Positions 14,029 through 31,090 of a stretch of 32,642 nucleotides of DNA are shown here, in pieces. The stretch lies in the IMG/VR virus record IMGVR_UViG_2778261268_000005; one strand, given 5' to 3'. The translations under genes and the position numbers were made by a program. Positions within the stretch are counted from its first letter, which is position 1; each line of letters opens with the position of its first letter. The notes beneath the pieces were generated by a model. It worked only from the letters and a program-made list of their open reading frames with translations, had not been told where the DNA came from and searched no databases. This DNA is from a virus. Its lineage: Duplodnaviria; Heunggongvirae; Uroviricota; Caudoviricetes.

Positions 14029-14101
<73 letters not shown>

Positions 14102-14388
14102 ATACTGTGCTGGCCCCCGGAATAACACGAATTACCAAGAGAGCCCGCACTGGTCTTTCCGGTGGCAAACAGCACCCCTGCTAACATAAAAGATAAACAC
14201 CTTCCAGACGCAAAAATACTAACAACTGTTTTTCAGATATCCAAAATATATTTGGTTTTTATTTTTGAAAATATGTATACATATGTATCATAAATATACA
14301 AGCCATATCATAACCGAATTAAAAATCTTTAGTTATCTCTTTTGCCGTCTGATCACCACCCACCGGCAGCTGAGAATTCCGGCACACA

Positions 14389-14453
14389 ATGAAAAAGGCC
14401 CGCCAGGGCGAGCCATAAAAACTGAATAAAAAAACCGCCCGGGGCGGCGGCTA
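14389..14453 (-). terminator. tandem pair of intrinsic terminators, copy B of the duplicated module
   Basis: Same two-hairpin architecture and flanking sequence as copy A, with point differences. Confidence 0.55.
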
Positions 14454-14815
14454 AAACGATAAAAGGACACAATATTATAATGATTATTGGGTTTGGGGCA
14501 TCGGGTGCCTCCCGAAGTATTCCACTTTACGTGGATACTGTGGTTTCCCGCTAAACCGACTCTATAAACCACCCTCGCACTGAGGAACGCCCCAATTCAT
14601 GTTTTCCGACACAGAGATGGCGCATCACTGGTTACTCCACGCTAAATCCTGCTTCCTTTCGTGGGCAATGCGCCATTTCTGTGTCATAAAAAATACAGCA
14701 CTGAGTCTGTAACCGATCTCCATTACAGAATGAGGGACGATAAAGGTATTAAAGAGATCTGTTCCTCACGAAAACCGCCAGTGCTGTAAAAACTTGTCCA
14801 AAAAACAATGAAGTT

Positions 14816-14884
14816 GCGGAGAACAGGAATCGAACCGGCATTACCAACCTAAGGCTGATGTAATAACCACTATACGATACCTGC
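14816..14884 (-). pseudogene. tRNA-like element, probably a degenerate paralogue of the tRNA-Gly gene
   Basis: 5' half nearly identical to the Gly tRNA (GTATCGTATAGTGGTTATTAC) and a TTCGATTCC T-loop, but anticodon, T and acceptor stems do not pair properly. Confidence 0.4.
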
Positions 14885-15406
14885 ATATAGAGCAGGCCTC
14901 CGTAACCACAATAATGACACTGATACTGATAACAGCCCTTCATTATGATTAAACGGATGCCAGCAATGACCCGCAAGACAGCGGGTAACACCCCTGTGAA
15001 CAGAAACTTGCTGCCTTTCGGGTCGAGAGTAATATTACCGATAATTTATATGACATCAAAAACTAATTAGTTTTCATATTTAAACATATGTATAAATATG
15101 TATCAGACGCATACAATTTATGTTATTTCATCCAGACTTCTGATTTCTCACAGGAAATTGCGAAAAAAAAACAACATAAAAATGAACAAATTGGGAGTAC
15201 GCTAACTCCGTTGTCGCAATAAATCACAGTAAGCTCTTCAGAAATAACAGTTCACAAGACTTACATCAACAGTAGTTTTTGTAATGATTAATGTTAACTG
15301 TAGCGTTGAAAAGAAAAGTTTTGACGAAATATGGTGAACTAACAGAGCCTAACGAATAGCCCTATTACGCCGAGCTAATAGCGCTGCCAGCTAAACTTGC
15401 ATGGAA

Positions 15407-15483
15407 TGGTCCGCCACCGAGGACTCGAACCTCGCACAATCAACTTAGAAGGTTGATGCTCTATCCCGATGAGCTAGTGGCGG
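15407..15483 (-). tRNA. tRNA-Arg(UCU), CCA encoded
   Basis: Acceptor CCGCCAC/GTGGCGG, anticodon loop CTTCTAA (anticodon TCT), T-loop TTCGAGT, 3' ACCA. Confidence 0.8.
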
Positions 15484-15485
15484 AA

Positions 15486-15561
15486 TGGTGGCCCTTGCTG
15501 GATTTGAACCAGCGACCTGGCGATTATGAGTCGCTCGCTCTCACCACTGAGCTAAAGGGCC
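15486..15561 (-). tRNA. tRNA with CAU anticodon, ileX/ileZ-like (Ile2 if lysidine-modified, otherwise Met), CCA encoded
   Basis: GGCCCTTTAGCTCAGTGG...ACTCATAATCGC...GGTTCAAATCCAGCAAGGGCCACCA; closely resembles E. coli ileX as recalled; 2 nt from the Arg tRNA. Confidence 0.8.
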
Positions 15562-15701: not shown

Positions 15702-16415
15702 TTAGCGCACTTTGACTATATTAATTTCAAATTCATCTGTATGTGCGCTATTAAGTATAACGAAATTCGTACTACCGTGCCTGTACGATTTTGATAAAAC
15801 CAAGCGATCACCATAGCGAGCAAGAACGTAATACCAAACGCTCTCATAGTGAAGTGTCTGATACTCCTTCTTAAACTGAGGTTTGTACCATCCAGCAATA
15901 AGCGAAAACAACCAGAAATAGAGCATGAATCCGGCCATAACACACTCAATCTTGTGATGCCGAATAAAAGACACTTCAGAAATACATTTAACGTAAATAA
16001 ACTTCCTGCCCGTTCTGACGAACATGGTAATTATTAATGCCACAATAGCGCATAAAACCAATGCATCTGGTACAAAGTGCTGATGAATTACCGAAAACTC
16101 CAGAGCCGGAGGAACAAAAAGCAACAATATCGCAAGAAAAAGCCTGACAGCACTCAAATCCTTCATATTATTTTTTTGTTTGATCCCCAGAAAGAAGACA
16201 ATACCGATCCCCCATCCAGCCAAGAATATAACGATAACTGTGACAGCATAAAACAGGCTTCTGGCCACATCATCAACACCGGCCCCGACAACCCACCATG
16301 GAAAGCCATAGTAAAAGGAAGTACCCCAGCCATAGAAATAAGCACTTCCCCACCCAAGACACCCCATGTAAGCAACAAAAAGTGAAGAATTCCTGAGCAG
16401 AGTACTGTCACTCAT
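15702..16415 (-). CDS. hypothetical polytopic membrane protein (237 aa from the second ATG; about 5 hydrophobic segments); late-region cargo gene
   Basis: AT-rich ORF between the Q terminator and the tRNA cluster; AGAGG Shine-Dalgarno 6 nt before ATG 16415; W/F/G/Y-rich hydrophobic helices; no family recognised. Confidence 0.6.
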   Translation of the reverse strand: MSDSTLLRNSSLFVAYMGCLGWGSAYFYGWGTSFYYGFPWWVVGAGVDDVARSLFYAVTVIVIFLAGWGIGIVFFLGIKQKNNMKDLSAVRLFLAILLLFVPPALEFSVIHQHFVPDALVLCAIVALIITMFVRTGRKFIYVKCISEVSFIRHHKIECVMAGFMLYFWLFSLIAGWYKPQFKKEYQTLHYESVWYYVLARYGDRLVLSKSYRHGSTNFVILNSAHTDEFEINIVKVR

Positions 16416-16453
16416 AATCATCCTCTAACAACTTAACAACATTAACTCGCTTT

Positions 16454-16868: not shown

Positions 16869-17411
16869 TCAAGCCATTTTTTGAGCAAATGATTCTCGCA
16901 TGGGAATGTATAGCGCACACTCAGCAACAGCCAACCAATTAGCAATTCGCTTTTCGCATGTGCTAAAACAACACTCTGGATACTGTTCGTTTAGTAACCC
17001 GGCCATCCTTCTCTTACTCATTCCTCGCCCCTCATACCGTTGTCGGAGGATGCTAATCAATCCCGGATGTTCTGCCAGCACCTCACTTATAACCCGATCA
17101 ATACATAACGCCTCTGCATCAGTACAATGCGCCAGCCAGCTCTTTTGCTTACCATTGATCATCTCTCGCAAAAACGCTTCCAGCTCAGGTTTCTCTATTC
17201 CCGCTTTTTTCATTCTGCGCAGGGCTTCATTGATGGCTGTTTTCGTCAATTTTTTGGATGCCAACAACTGATTGAACATATTTCCTGACCTGCCACCACC
17301 AATATATGACCAGCGCCCCCACATACGTAGTTTTCCCTGAATCCAGACACTTTCCAGCGTAGTGAGACGAAGGTGTTCTCCGCTTTTTCCTGTATTCGTT
17401 GGGTAAATCAT
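16869..17411 (-). CDS. late-gene antitermination protein Q (180 aa)
   Basis: Recalled similarity to lambdoid Q proteins of E. coli prophages; position upstream of the late region; ATGA coupling to the DUF1364 gene. Confidence 0.75.
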   Translation of the reverse strand: MIYPTNTGKSGEHLRLTTLESVWIQGKLRMWGRWSYIGGGRSGNMFNQLLASKKLTKTAINEALRRMKKAGIEKPELEAFLREMINGKQKSWLAHCTDAEALCIDRVISEVLAEHPGLISILRQRYEGRGMSKRRMAGLLNEQYPECCFSTCEKRIANWLAVAECALYIPMRESFAQKMA

Positions 17412-17698
17412 AAATATCCCTCCTTTCTCCAGATTTCTTGTGTGCGAAAAACACCTTCTGCATGCATCAGGCGTAATTCTTCTTTGGTGTAATCACTGGT
17501 TTTTACCCGCCCGTCGATTAAATCGTGGCACGATCTACAGGCAATCGCTGCCTGCATATCGTGTGGTTTTGCCGCTGTTCCGCACGTCCCCGCCAGTCGG
17601 TAATGCGCCAGCACAGAAGTTTCGGGATTGTGATTGCAGTAGCCAGGAATTCTGACGGTGCACATCTGCCCCCGCGCCGCTTTACGTAAATCCACCAT
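17408..17698 (-). CDS. DUF1364 / YbcO-like protein (96 aa, Cys-rich putative metal-binding nuclease)
   Basis: Recalled similarity to DLP12 YbcO (VRIPGxCNxNPETSVLAH...ACxxCHD motifs); nin-region position next to Q. Confidence 0.7.
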   Translation of the reverse strand: MVDLRKAARGQMCTVRIPGYCNHNPETSVLAHYRLAGTCGTAAKPHDMQAAIACRSCHDLIDGRVKTSDYTKEELRLMHAEGVFRTQEIWRKEGYL

Positions 17699-18297
17699 TA
17701 CGCAAACTCCAGTAACTGTGCGACCACATTTTCGACTTCCTCCGGAGAGGAAAATTTACGGAACAGGATCCAGTTCCACAGCACATTCAGTACAGATTTA
17801 TAAACCTGCTGAAACTCGGTTTCGTCCATATTCGCAAAAGCGATGGATTTCGCCCGGCGTCCACGGCTACCGTCCGGATAAAAATGCTCGGTGTAAAATC
17901 CGGCCTGAATGGTTATCCATTCGCGAAAAGCGTCAAATGACTTGAGTAAGGCCGTATCCCGGGTTCTGCGAGTCGCAACGGTGTTAAGGTATTGCTCTGC
18001 AGCATCACTAAGGGCTGGCGTATGTTCCCGACCTACTGATTCGCACAGGAAATCAACGAAACCGGACACCAGTTCTCGTTCGCGAGGCGTGATCACCCCA
18101 CCGACCGGAGTCCAGTAATCGAATCCCAGTTGCAGGAGTTTGAAAAAACGCTTGTGGAATGAGTAGTTACGCACACGCTTAAAGTCTGCGTGTATCCACT
18201 CACCTATTTTGATTTGATGCAAAAAATCGCAACTCTCCGGCGTCGCCGGGAGAAGTAATCCGGAAGAGGTTTGTTTGACCAGTTGTATATGCGCCAT
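17698..18297 (-). CDS. DUF1367-like nin-region protein (199 aa from ATG 18297; track start 18309 is TTG)
   Basis: GGAGA Shine-Dalgarno 5 nt before ATG 18297; family assignment from memory is tentative. Confidence 0.5.
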   Translation of the reverse strand: MAHIQLVKQTSSGLLLPATPESCDFLHQIKIGEWIHADFKRVRNYSFHKRFFKLLQLGFDYWTPVGGVITPRERELVSGFVDFLCESVGREHTPALSDAAEQYLNTVATRRTRDTALLKSFDAFREWITIQAGFYTEHFYPDGSRGRRAKSIAFANMDETEFQQVYKSVLNVLWNWILFRKFSSPEEVENVVAQLLEFA

Positions 18298-18356
18298 TGC
18301 TGTCTCCAATGGCGCTGTAGGTTGCCAGTTGTTCAGGCTGGCTTACGAATTATAAC

Positions 18357-18530
18357 TCATTCCCGAATCACCTTGAAACCGAGCCTTTCAAGATATTCAA
18401 TGAATGCCTCGATAGATAAAATTACATGATTATCAGGGATTAACGTTGCGTAGATAACTTCCCCATTCTCAACGCGCACAGCAAAGAGGCCATTTTCACT
18501 AAAAATTTCACGTAATTCTTCAATTTTCAT
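18357..18530 (-). CDS. small acidic hypothetical protein (57 aa), first gene of the operon leading to Q; below the ORF-track length cutoff
   Basis: ATG with GGAAGGA Shine-Dalgarno 8 nt upstream; lies between the hok terminator and the DUF1367 gene. Confidence 0.45.
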   Translation of the reverse strand: MKIEELREIFSENGLFAVRVENGEVIYATLIPDNHVILSIEAFIEYLERLGFKVIRE

Positions 18531-18644
18531 CAACAGAATCCTTCCAGATAAATAGCCCCCCCCTGTTCGGGGTCCATCCCTCTTCTCCCTGCGCGCTACT
18601 TAAGTATTTTTGATTCTATTCCGGCATCGTCCATAACTTCAAAC

Positions 18645-18681
18645 GTATTGAAAATAAAAACAAAAACCCGCCGAAGCGGGT
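18645..18681 (-). terminator. intrinsic terminator at the 3' end of the hok transcript
   Basis: CCCGC-TTCG-GCGGG hairpin followed by TTTTTGTTTTTATTTT on the minus strand, about 70 nt after the hok stop. Confidence 0.6.
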
Positions 18682-18750
18682 TAAGTGCGGGTGCGTTGAA
18701 GATGCCTGACACATCATAGGCGGCGAGGGATTTCTCCCTCGCCTGGTCTC

Positions 18751-18906
18751 TTACTCCTCAGGTTCGTAAGCTGTGAAGACAGCGACCTCCGTCTGGCCGG
18801 TTCGGATTCGTACCTCGCAGAGGTCTTTCCTCGTTACCAGTGCCGTCACTATGACGGTTAAACAGATGACGATCAGGGCGATTAACATCGCCTTTTGCTG
18901 CTTCAT
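18751..18906 (-). CDS. hokD: Hok/Gef-family type I toxin (51 aa); an in-frame upstream start at 18963 gives a 70 aa Mok-like form
   Basis: Translation MKQQKAMLIALIVICLTVIVTALVTRKDLCEVRIRTGQTEVAVFTAYEPEE matches HokD/RelF as recalled; structured leader and 3' terminator. Confidence 0.85.
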   Translation of the reverse strand: MKQQKAMLIALIVICLTVIVTALVTRKDLCEVRIRTGQTEVAVFTAYEPEE

Positions 18907-19116
18907 AGCCTGCTTCTCCTTGCCTTTCGGCACGTAAGAGGCTAACCTACATTTGTGAGACATAGATTGGGCCTCAGATTAATGTTAAGCGTCTTGCAGG
19001 ACGCGTAATGTTAACTGGGGCTTTTCTCTATCTGCCTTTGGTGTTCATGCCCGAGGCAGATAGCCTCAAGCACCCGCAGCAATTCTACTTAACTCTCCTT
19101 TTCCCGCAAACCGTTT

Positions 19117-19200
19117 TTATCCCCAGCGGCAAATCGAATACACCACCAGCGCCACCGCCATCGCAATTCCTACCGTGGTGAATGCCTCAGGCCGGGTCAT
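19117..19200 (-). CDS. candidate 27 aa hydrophobic peptide (MTRPEAFTTVGIAMAVALVVYSICRWG), coupled to the DUF551 gene stop
   Basis: ATG overlaps the upstream TGA (ATGA); single predicted transmembrane segment; no other support. Confidence 0.25.
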   Translation of the reverse strand: MTRPEAFTTVGIAMAVALVVYSICRWG

Positions 19201-19901
19201 TGATTCACCTCCTGCGGCGGTTCTGGTAGCGGCATCCAGTGAGTTGAGCTCTCTACTTCGACGCCGTCTTTGTCTACAAAAGCCATCTTATTCCCGCCAC
19301 GAGTGGGGCAAAAAACCTTATCCCAGGAACCGGGGAATACATTCCCGAGATCATCGAGAAGAATCACATCGCAATATTCAGCAGGAACTGCATCACTACA
19401 GCTTATCCAGCCAGCCGGAGTTCCCGGAGAGCTGGTTGACGTTTCCGAGATTTCCCGAAAATTGTTGGTTGACGAATTCTTACTTTCCCGAAAGTTTTCG
19501 GCCTGAAGCATGGCGACACGGCAGGCGTTCCAGCCATCAGCATATGTTTCAGTTACACCGTCGAGATGGCAGGTAAGCAAATCCATTTCATCAGGCACTA
19601 CCATCGCTGGCGGCGCTGCGTAAAGCGGTGTTATTTCTGCCCGAAAATCACCTACTTTATGCAGTCGCACCCACCGTTCGATTTCTGCTTTGTCAGAATT
19701 CATAAGGGTGAACGTATTACATTCATGGTTAATTTGCGTGAAGGTTGCCTTCCACGCCACCGGCTCTGCTTCCAGTGATGCCAGTGCAATTTTGAATAAC
19801 TCGCCCTCTACCTGCGCCATCCCTGAATTTGAGTGGCATTTCGCAATCGCTATTTTTAATTTGGCTTCTTCGATTAATTGCTCTTTGGTTAATTCAGTCA
19901 T
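19197..19901 (-). CDS. DUF551-domain phage protein (234 aa)
   Basis: C-terminal region with the ...THWMPLPEPP motif characteristic of DUF551 proteins, as recalled. Confidence 0.55.
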   Translation of the reverse strand: MTELTKEQLIEEAKLKIAIAKCHSNSGMAQVEGELFKIALASLEAEPVAWKATFTQINHECNTFTLMNSDKAEIERWVRLHKVGDFRAEITPLYAAPPAMVVPDEMDLLTCHLDGVTETYADGWNACRVAMLQAENFRESKNSSTNNFREISETSTSSPGTPAGWISCSDAVPAEYCDVILLDDLGNVFPGSWDKVFCPTRGGNKMAFVDKDGVEVESSTHWMPLPEPPQEVNQ

Positions 19902-23425: not shown

Positions 23426-23848
23426 TCAATGCACTACGACAGAATCACCGGGCGACCCACCACCGCTGAAATGTGCTTTCCGGTAAACGGCCTGGACTGC
23501 ATCATCATGCGCATCAATTGCCGTACTCAACGCTTCCTGCGCCGCCAGTAATGCACGGCGTTCCAGGGTATCGAAGATGCAGAGTCGGTGACGCAGCTCG
23601 CGCGGAAGAATTGCCAGAACCGCAGGGATCAGTGTCTGAATTTTTTCCCTTTGCGCTTTCGTTTCACCTTTTAACCAACGGTGATAGATGTTCTGCTGAT
23701 TATTCCAGTCCTTGCCTGGTACCAGGGGCAATTCGCCGCCCCCCTGGCGCAGATATTCTTCAGTAATTGCATTGGCTACCCATGCCTGCCCTTTTTCAGC
23801 GGCCAGGGCTAACAGCACTGATTCGATGTGCTCATGCCTGATTTTCAT
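23426..23848 (-). CDS. YdaT-like protein (140 aa), cII-like regulator / putative toxin family
   Basis: Same size and position as Rac YdaT; C-terminal HFSGGGSPGDSVVVH resembles the YdaT tail as recalled. Confidence 0.55.
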   Translation of the reverse strand: MKIRHEHIESVLLALAAEKGQAWVANAITEEYLRQGGGELPLVPGKDWNNQQNIYHRWLKGETKAQREKIQTLIPAVLAILPRELRHRLCIFDTLERRALLAAQEALSTAIDAHDDAVQAVYRKAHFSGGGSPGDSVVVH

Positions 23849-24107
23849 GAATCAACTCCTGTGCATTTTGTGTGTTAGCCTTACATCCAACAGGTAAACC
23901 ATCGGTCGGATTCGGGTAGATATCAGGCCGGAGTTCATGAGGTGTAACCTCGAAATTCGTAGCCTCTGCGATACGCAATACCTTTTCAGGGCTTAACTGA
24001 CTACGTCCAGTAGCAACGAGGCTAATCATTGATTGCGAACAACCAGCCAGCGCGGCCAAACAAGACTGTCGTACACGATTTTTTTTCAAATATTCATCTA
24101 ATGTCAT
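23832..24107 (-). CDS. Cro-like HTH protein, YdaS-like (91 aa from ATG 24107; track start 24134 is TTG)
   Basis: AAGGTGA Shine-Dalgarno 5 nt before ATG 24107; divergent from the repressor gene; HTH motif QSCLAALAGCSQSMISLVATG. Confidence 0.6.
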   Translation of the reverse strand: MTLDEYLKKNRVRQSCLAALAGCSQSMISLVATGRSQLSPEKVLRIAEATNFEVTPHELRPDIYPNPTDGLPVGCKANTQNAQELIHENQA

Positions 24108-24211: not shown

Positions 24212-24676
24212 ATGAGAAGAAAACGCGAAGAAATCGCATCGCCAGAAGCTACGCAGCGTCTACGCGGAATCTGGGATGCAAAAAAAAGAGAGCTCAAATT
24301 GACTCAGGAGCTTGCTGCCGAGCTAATGGGCTTTGAGACGCAATCTACGGTTAGCCACTATCTCAACGGAAAGGCTCCACTTAACACTGATGCGGCATTA
24401 AAATTCGCAGTATTGCTAAGAGTTAAGCCTGAAGACTTGAGGCCTGATTTAGCTGATCTGATGAATTACGTCCGTTCCTCTGGAACTTATGACGAAAGTT
24501 TCGAAGGCGAAGGGTGGCGGATGGTTAACAAGCAACAAGCTGATTTACTGGATCTTTTTGATATCCTCCCCGAATCAGAAAAAGCAAAACTAATCGAAAG
24601 GCTTAAAGGCCAGAATGAACTCTACAAAGAAGCGTTTGAAAATATGCTGGCAGCTCAGAAACGCATAAAGAAATAG
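24212..24676 (+). CDS. prophage repressor, RacR/DicA-like HTH protein (154 aa)
   Basis: HTH LTQELAAELMGFETQSTVSHYLNG; C-terminal LDLFDILPESEKAKL resembles DicA-type repressors; divergent to the cro-like gene. Confidence 0.7.
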   Translation: MRRKREEIASPEATQRLRGIWDAKKRELKLTQELAAELMGFETQSTVSHYLNGKAPLNTDAALKFAVLLRVKPEDLRPDLADLMNYVRSSGTYDESFEGEGWRMVNKQQADLLDLFDILPESEKAKLIERLKGQNELYKEAFENMLAAQKRIKK

Positions 24677-30714: not shown

Positions 30715-30909
30715 ATGCGGTATGAAAAAGTCAAACCATGCCCTTTTTGTGGTTGTCCATCAGTAACGGTGAAAGCCATTTCAGGATATTACCGCGCGAA
30801 GTGTAACGGATGCGAATCCCGAACCGGCTATGGTGGAAGTGAAAAAGAAGCACTCGAACGATGGAATAAACGAACCACTGGAAATAATAATGGAGGTGTT
30901 CATGTATAA
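30715..30909 (+). CDS. ralR: restriction alleviation protein RalR/Lar (64 aa)
   Basis: Translation MRYEKVKPCPFCGCPSVTVKAISGYYRAKCNGCESRTGYGG... matches RalR as recalled. Confidence 0.8.
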   Translation: MRYEKVKPCPFCGCPSVTVKAISGYYRAKCNGCESRTGYGGSEKEALERWNKRTTGNNNGGVHV

Positions 30910-31090
30910 AATTACCGCCACTATTGAAAAGGAAGGTGGCACTCCTACTAACTGGACAAGGTACTCAAAAACAAAGTTAACCAAATCGGAATGCGAAAAA
31001 ATGCTCTCAGGGAAAAAAGAAGCAGGCGTTTCCAGAGAGCAGAAAGTAAAACTGATAAATTTTAATTGCGAGAAACTTCAGTCCTCGTGA
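30902..31090 (+). CDS. YdaC-like small protein (62 aa)
   Basis: GGAGGTG Shine-Dalgarno; overlaps the ralR stop; position between ralR and xis. Confidence 0.5.
   Translation: MYKITATIEKEGGTPTNWTRYSKTKLTKSECEKMLSGKKEAGVSREQKVKLINFNCEKLQSS

Follow-up and report, generated by a model that had tools for sequence, protein, structure and literature searches.

The best described relative of the gene considered here is rem of the Qin prophage of Escherichia coli K-12 (b1561), which encodes an antirepressor of DicA and causes a 165-fold derepression of dicBp; the signal that induces Rem was stated to be unknown (Ragunathan et al. 2023, PMC10448788). A comparable arrangement was described for the Gifsy loci dinI-gfoA/gftA-irsA, in which a terminator and a dedicated promoter precede a small antirepressor gene that is separate from the immunity region and immediately upstream of irsA (Lemire et al. 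2011, PMC3121763). In the isrK-orf45-anrP locus of Gifsy-1, a long-range RNA helix hides the ribosome site and gates translation of the antirepressor (Hershko-Shalev et al. 2016, PMC4825925). Here we describe a block of four genes in a prophage sequence of 32,642 nucleotides (nt) recorded as IMG/VR virus IMGVR_UViG_2778261268_000005 (hereafter the window), which is identical to a prophage of E. coli RM11911. The block opens with a 57-amino-acid (aa) open reading frame (ORF) at 18530-18357 and continues with a DUF1367 gene, a YbcO/DUF1364 gene and a Q-like late antiterminator gene; these and the features below lie on the minus strand unless stated otherwise. Parts of this 2.4-kb block were matched in 4820 of 5426 complete E. 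coli genomes, and rem-DUF1367-YbcO-Q is an ordinary, widespread nin/Q region of a Rac/Qin-type lambdoid E. coli prophage.

Judged by its sequence matches, the 57-aa protein is a short form of Rem, and as such it is neither unknown nor unnamed. It matched phrog_340 of the PHROGs collection end to end (residues 1-56, E 1.7e-17), K-12 Rem matched the same positions of that profile, and PF27490 was present in all 63 database homologues of the 57-aa protein. The Pfam and NCBIfam libraries gave no match, the Pfam library having been used without PF27490. The N-terminal 26 aa are 65% identical to K-12 Rem by BLASTP (E 9e-11), and a multiple alignment showed N- and C-terminal segments common to the 57-aa protein and the 83-aa K-12 Rem. 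The position of the gene is also kept. In K-12 Qin, in the IMG/VR loci and in Rac-SA53 it follows hok and a terminator and precedes the nuclease and Q genes, and the gene between hokD and the next gene in K-12 Qin is rem itself. Rac-SA53 already carries the annotation hok-rem-irsA-ybcO-q for the same block, and other records name the gene either hypothetical protein or 'rem'. The original prediction, which was made from this DNA alone, had described the small protein as acidic, preceded by a good Shine-Dalgarno sequence and unannotated. The first two points were borne out (net charge about -5; AAGGA 9 nt 5' of the ATG); the third holds locally, where RefSeq has only a pseudogene, and fails elsewhere, given phrog_340/PF27490 and the name 'rem' in Rac-SA53.

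The Rem family is small. A HMMER scan of 1.84 billion representative proteins yielded 38 clusters, so that a wider family was rejected, and a scan of one genome per species found Rem only in Escherichia, Shigella, Salmonella and one metagenome-assembled genome. The AlphaFold model of the 57-aa protein has an alpha-beta-beta-alpha topology (predicted local distance difference test, pLDDT, 77); Foldseek found no match in the PDB with E below 0.9, and the attempt to read a function from structure was abandoned. As a separate observation, one 1184-aa protein of the representative library (P0321) contains seven separate stretches that match Rem residues 9-26.

Comparison with the two closest relatives shows both likenesses and differences. 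K-12 Qin has a promoter and leader nearly identical in sequence to those described below, and both prophages have a short non-cleavable repressor. In contrast, K-12 Rem has 83 aa against the 57 aa of the window protein, and it is paired with DicA rather than with the repressor class of the window. Rac-SA53 (KU052037) has the same gene order and families, with DUF1367 91%, YbcO 88% and Q 76% identical to the window proteins. Its Rem has 58 aa, is 70% identical to that of the window and belongs to a different allele group (N-terminus MKSFEKL...). The Rac-SA53 entry was submitted as a whole phage genome; the window, by contrast, represents a prophage.

If the short Rem has a cognate repressor in the window, the proposed target would be a 154-aa protein at 24212-24676 on the plus strand, which has a helix-turn-helix domain (Pfam HTH_3) and no peptidase domain. 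The C-terminal 50 aa of this protein are 30% identical to the C-terminus of DicA (E 7e-7), and the gene is flanked by YdaS-like and YdaT-like genes. To compare Rem form with repressor type we used loci with 10-kb flanks, the repressor lying about 6 kb from rem. Short Rem was accompanied by the window-type repressor in 43 loci, by the DicA type in 2 and by neither in 10; long Rem was accompanied by the DicA type in 5 loci, and by the window type or neither in none. For the 50 loci with an assigned repressor there were thus 2 exceptions, and Fisher's test gave P 1e-5, a value that is overstated since the loci are related prophages and not independent. Rem form does not track the downstream module, both forms being found with both modules described below. 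The co-variation of Rem form with repressor type is the pattern that would be expected of a cognate antirepressor-repressor pair in mosaic phages. Beside the repressor, the Cro position is taken by a YdaS-family protein followed by a YdaT-family protein (23426-24107), the first genes of the early right operon; both families are called 'toxins' in Pfam.

The rem gene is preceded by an intrinsic terminator at 18682-18665 (7-bp stem with 5 GC pairs, followed by a T-run), which forms the 3' end of the hok transcript and is invariant in an alignment of the window, an O157-like locus and K-12 Qin. Downstream of it lies a candidate sigma-70 promoter, P_rem, at 18642-18613, with a -35 element TTGAAG (18642-18637), an 18-nt spacer, a -10 element TAGAAT (18618-18613) and a predicted start near 18606. 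In a promoter scan its hexamers matched at 9 of 12 positions. Conservation sets in exactly at an invariant TAGAATC, upstream of which the flank is mosaic. Among eight flank groups with less than 60% identity to one another, every one has a TTG at a fixed distance from TAGAAT (16 nt in seven groups, 18 nt in one); with a background of 0.12 per three-offset window, the binomial P is 4e-8. At the other end, a terminator-like hairpin directly 3' of Q (16788-16763) closes the unit. At two of the three junctions between genes, the stop codon of one gene overlaps the start codon of the next, as TAATG at 17700-17696 (DUF1367/YbcO) and as ATGA at 17411-17408 (YbcO/Q). A discrete rem-DUF1367-YbcO-Q unit is therefore supported, because terminators stand on both sides and the TTG/TAGAAT motif is conserved, and from the same motif we infer that P_rem is an active promoter. 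The suggestion in the original prediction that an operon opens at the small ORF fits well with the preceding terminator, the conserved TAGAAT/TTG, the overlapping stops and starts and the terminator after Q.

The alternative that survives best is that no separate operon exists. The nin genes and Q of lambda are expressed by antiterminated read-through from pR, and the block studied here might likewise be read from pR through the hok terminator, with TAGAAT and TTG conserved for another reason, such as a recombination boundary or a protein site. Such a view would account for hexamers that match at only 9 of 12 positions, and it avoids a constitutive promoter reading into Q, which would be harmful; in a lysogen such a promoter would need tight control. 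We nevertheless regard this alternative as unlikely, since the TTG spacing is fixed at 16 or 18 nt in all eight dissimilar flanks and conservation starts right at the -10 element. Furthermore, a dedicated start site, 1.6 kb upstream of antQ, serves the antQ operon of Gifsy-1 (PMC4825925), and in the Gifsy antirepressor loci a terminator is followed by a promoter that belongs to the locus (PMC3121763). Control of the rem promoter by LexA was rejected: between 18540 and 18700 there is no LexA box with three or fewer mismatches to the 20-nt consensus, and no CTGT-N8-ACAG with at most one mismatch.

Between the predicted start and the coding sequence lies a conserved leader (18606-18534), which holds a G-rich element, an upstream ATG, a run of eight G (G8, 18563-18556) and the Shine-Dalgarno sequence GGAAGGA (18545-18539). 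Across 46 distinct sequences the leader is 87-98% conserved from position -75 to -31. The G-rich stretch at 18545-18570, on the transcribed strand, had been pointed out in the original prediction as a structured element upstream of the genes. It is real and structured, consisting of a hairpin and the G8 run, and it is not free-standing, as it lies in the loop region of the longer conserved leader. The small hairpin, CCC(C)-loop-(G)GGG at about 18571-18561, is 100% paired in 17 sequences; one of its pairs shows one compensatory change (CG to UA), there are three wobble changes, and the loops vary (GAACA, GAGA, GAA, TGAA, TAA).

A longer helix is predicted to enclose the Shine-Dalgarno sequence and the ATG of rem. 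Within the leader, conservation peaks (94-98%) in the 5' arm of this helix (UAGCGCGCAGGG...AGAGG, 18598-18579), and its 3' arm (CCUCUUUGCUGUGCGCGUUG, 18489-18470) falls within rem codons 14-21. The predicted fold has a minimum free energy of -45.7 kcal/mol (z -3.73), and none of 200 shuffled sequences was as stable. The long-range helix is kept in a consensus fold of 17 sequences, with 98% of cells paired, and five pairs each show one one-sided change that preserves pairing. In rem, codons 1-26 show less synonymous diversity than codons 27-57. The leader is a candidate for gating translation by hiding the ribosome site, as predicted from the fold. Covariation could not serve as proof of the long-range helix, as the alignment varies too little.

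The upstream ATG (18577-18575) was considered both as the true start of rem and as the start of a conserved leader peptide, and both were rejected. Depending on the allele it stands in frame 0, 1 or 2 with rem, because of 1-nt insertions and deletions in the G8 run, and therefore the upstream extension is not a conserved coding sequence. Database versions of 72-74 and 95 aa start at this upstream ATG. In the window it opens an upstream ORF of 15 codons whose stop overlaps the rem start (TGATG). The upstream short ORF in Gifsy-1 is conserved in nucleotides and variable in peptide, and its stop overlaps the antirepressor start (PMC4825925). The window therefore resembles isrK-orf45-anrP in a comparable predicted helix and in a 15-codon upstream ORF ending TGATG. 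In contrast to that locus, the frame of the window ORF is not conserved and the leader is not homologous to isrK. In a search of 301 nt the Rfam isrK model (RF01394) stayed below its gathering threshold (26.7 against 50 bits, E 5e-4); the match covers the hok 3' hairpin and terminator (18661-18742) and is probably a generic resemblance of two hairpins. Homology to IsrK was accordingly rejected.

A further question is whether the short rem is a live gene. It might instead be what is left of a longer rem after decay, itself without function, so that the unit would be DUF1367-YbcO-Q read from pR. RefSeq/PGAP annotation of the identical genome treats 18453-18530 as a 26-codon pseudogene fragment, 'incomplete, missing C-terminus', BLASTP to K-12 Rem matches the first 26 aa only, and an internal segment is absent from the short form. 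We consider a remnant quite improbable, however, for several reasons. All 27 distinct short-rem alleles are intact at 57 codons, the pooled ratio of nonsynonymous to synonymous polymorphism (pN/pS) is 0.26, and variable sites fall 24/9/36 on the three codon positions, with an excess at the third; intact alleles and low pN/pS argue against a decaying fragment. The gene is present on more than 1000 contigs, its C-terminal part aligns with long Rem too and phrog_340 is matched end to end. It is also kept in Rac-SA53, deposited as a complete phage genome, and Rem form tracks repressor type. The original prediction had named a lack of conservation of this ORF as a point that would speak against it; the ORF is conserved, and it is a real coding sequence under purifying selection.

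The genes that follow rem belong to the families that had been named for them, DUF1367, DUF1364/YbcO and Q, as Pfam matches confirmed. The DUF1367 (IrsA-type) gene at 18297-17698 encodes 199 aa and matches PF07105 (E 2.5e-97; 324.8 bits against a cut-off of 25) over profile positions 1-198 of 198, as well as phrog_319. Its start is the ATG at 18297, as in RefSeq and nearly all homologues, and not the TTG at 18309. The YbcO gene (17698-17408, 96 aa; Pfam E 4.2e-44) matches PDB entry 3G27, the YbcO of DLP12, over its full length (E 1e-30), with C13, C21, H32, C54, C57 and H58 aligned and identical, including the Cys ligands and the His of the beta-hairpin; its product is predicted to be a His-Me finger nuclease with bound zinc. 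YbcO has been described as a treble-clef His-Me finger protein of group 7, together with DUF968, with nuclease activity predicted and no assay reported, and as a relative of phage P1 Ref and DUF968/YdfU for which a NinG-like recombination role was suggested (PMC4999995, PMC5714182). The reading of YbcO as a predicted metal-dependent nuclease agrees with this published view, and Pfam matches of YdfU also point to kinship of YbcO with recombination nucleases. The Q-like gene (17411-16869) matches DUF1133 (E 1e-104), phrog_753 (E 1.3e-77) and Phage_antitermQ (PF06530; 28.4 bits against a cut-off of 26). It is followed by promoter-like and terminator-like sites, namely a pR'-like promoter (16711-16682) and a second terminator (16587-16565), with holins and endolysin further on, a position that fits lambdoid Q antiterminators.

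In lambda, the nin region has an equivalent location, with the replication genes on one side and Q on the other. The PHROGs label of DUF1367 is NinB/Orf, and DUF1367 occupies the NinB slot, before NinG and Q, in Stx2 and Gifsy-2 phages; the 149-aa 'NinB' of Stx2 phages is a short DUF1367 (hhalign 99.3%). The placement of DUF1367 in the NinB slot and of YbcO in the NinG slot is solid as a matter of position. DUF1367 was rejected as a sequence homologue of lambda NinB (PF05772) by single-sequence and profile-profile comparison, there was no sequence homology between the short DUF1367 of Stx2 phages and lambda NinB either, and a DUF1367 profile search of the PDB returned only noise. The DUF1367 model (pLDDT 76) bears a weak fold similarity to BFVD proteins named NinB (probability 0.80-0.97, template modelling score, TM, 0.23-0.41). 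By analogy of position, the most likely role of DUF1367 and YbcO is that of substitutes for lambda NinB and NinG, as a pair of recombination mediator and structure-specific nuclease. In E. coli ECMA0423 and a Shigella flexneri genome (about 10327 and 11914), the DUF1367 match falls into two parts separated by 1.6 kb, probably through an insertion; both loci carry long Rem and a DicA-like repressor.

The three genes do not form an obligate trio. In a survey of 80 IMG/VR loci carrying Rem, 51 had Rem followed by DUF1367, DUF1364 and Q(DUF1133), and in about 22 it was followed by YdfU(DUF968) and QuuQ. DUF1367 in turn stands beside NinG, without Rem or YbcO, in Stx2 phages and Gifsy-2, where the order is dinI, a 73-aa ORF, DUF1367 (200 aa), NinG and Q. 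The original prediction had treated the three genes as one cassette; in this co-occurrence check the idea of a fixed trio failed, as Rem occurs with two modules and DUF1367 with NinG, and rem-DUF1367-YbcO is a mosaic rather than a single system. In the alternative module YdfU replaces DUF1367 and YbcO. It was considered as a gene fusion of DUF1367 and DUF1364, an idea that was dropped because BLASTP detected nothing similar to DUF1367 in YdfU, and the alignment of YdfU with YbcO is confined to the HNH motif.

These counts also bear on the idea that the three proteins make up one dedicated system (nuclease-based defence, anti-defence or toxin-antitoxin), with the small acidic protein as inhibitor or partner of YbcO. 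Tight linkage with overlapping stops and starts, the order small gene-DUF1367-DUF1364-Q in the 51 loci and the weak matches of YbcO to HNH effector models (E about 2e-3) are what such a system would offer. We hold it to be very unlikely, given Rem before YdfU and QuuQ, DUF1367 with NinG in Gifsy-2 and Stx2 phages, and a position that is the classical nin region from replication genes to Q. Furthermore, PADLOC models recognized no defence system among the proteins, only the weak HNH-motif matches of YbcO (E 0.002-0.009), and membership in a defence system was rejected on that basis. That the 57-aa protein is instead an RNA-binding protein or mRNA interferase resembling HicA, as one JGI record implies by calling a homologue 'predicted RNA binding protein YcfA (HicA-like)' and as its similar size and predicted alpha-beta-beta-alpha topology might suggest, is hardly credible and was rejected, since there was no Pfam HicA match at E below 0.1, hhalign gave 6.9% probability over 21 columns (against an approximate E. 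coli HicA sequence), Foldseek found nothing with E below 0.9 and no HicB-like partner is adjacent.

We lean towards reading the right-hand early region of this Rac/Qin-type prophage as one unit that combines the Rem antirepressor, a recombination pair and Q. The sigma-70 promoter at 18642-18613 would drive rem, DUF1367, YbcO and Q. By analogy with Rem/DicA and GfoA/GftA, we infer antirepressor activity for the short form, which would bind and inactivate the prophage's own non-cleavable repressor (24212-24676). DUF1367/IrsA, in the position of lambda NinB (Orf), and the YbcO nuclease, in that of NinG (Rap) or RusA, would act as a recombination or DNA-processing pair during lytic growth, and Q would switch on the late genes. 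A gate probably controls rem expression, with a promoter that lacks a LexA box and a leader that would pair with codons 14-21 and bury the ribosome binding site. A more specific proposal, which we consider possible rather than probable, is that short Rem is the cognate antirepressor of the YdaS/YdaT-associated non-cleavable repressors and is controlled by the conserved non-SOS promoter together with a leader that hides the ribosome site. The Gifsy loci offer the nearest parallel, sharing with the window a small gene outside the immunity region, a terminator, a promoter, irsA/DUF1367, a nuclease and Q, and repressors that are short and not cleaved. Unlike the window, they have a LexA box and dinI, and they carry NinG where the window has YbcO.

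Several points weigh against this interpretation. The 57-aa form lacks about 20-25 internal residues of K-12 Rem, between the second strand and the C-terminal helix, and its activity may differ or be lost; RefSeq/PGAP treats the gene as a fragment. Homology of the window Rem to GftA was not detectable (hhalign probability 0.8%, E 0.072), and the published link between Rem and GftA runs solely via a PSI-BLAST intermediate (PMC10448788). Short Rem is found with a DicA-like repressor or with neither type at some loci, the loci compared are related to one another, and a promoter reading into Q is dangerous in a lysogen. The long-range helix shows no compensatory double changes in the 17-sequence alignment, and its 3' arm is also under protein-coding constraint. 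Finally, comparison of DUF1367 with lambda NinB gave an hhalign probability of 0.1%, with a single sequence and a 31-sequence profile alike, and the DUF1367 model resembles 1pc6_A weakly (probability 0.66, TM 0.36/0.47, E 0.59).

Most E. coli genomes contain prophages of the Rac/Qin type, which bring with them toxins and cell-division inhibitors and whose repressors are not SOS-cleaved. If true, the cognate-antirepressor proposal would offer a testable entry to the question of which signal induces such prophages, and Q co-transcribed with an antirepressor would make a one-step commitment module. The Rem antirepressor family and the rem-irsA-ybcO-q annotation in Rac-SA53 were already known; modestly new are the short Rem form and its tie to the repressor class of the window, the conserved non-SOS promoter and the candidate helix between leader and coding sequence. 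An ORF discarded by an annotation pipeline as a pseudogene is here a conserved Rem variant. As a practical lesson, a DUF1367/YbcO pair should be read as a likely stand-in for NinB and NinG and not as part of a three-gene system.

The surroundings of the unit are those of a lambdoid prophage with cargo genes. The toxin gene hok/mok, complete and accompanied by its sok antisense RNA, lies directly upstream (18751-19075; Pfam HOK_GEF; Rfam sok 117.7 bits), and some relatives carry a doc-type toxin module as an insertion between hok and rem. Beyond the terminators on the Q side follow a membrane-protein ORF, tRNA genes, holins and endolysin. The membrane protein is a 239-aa multi-pass ORF (15702-16421) without a family match, and the tRNA cluster (14030-15561; Ile, Arg and Gly in RefSeq) includes a weak fourth match at 14815-14884 (31.8 bits); both lie between Q/pR' and the lysis genes, the usual position of cargo genes. 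The RalA antitoxin small RNA of the RalR/RalA type I system (30908-31086, 218.5 bits) marks the left arm as Rac-like. In the DUF551 region (19197-19901), where RefSeq/PGAP gives partial or frameshifted pieces in the identical genome, the window has an intact 234-aa ORF.

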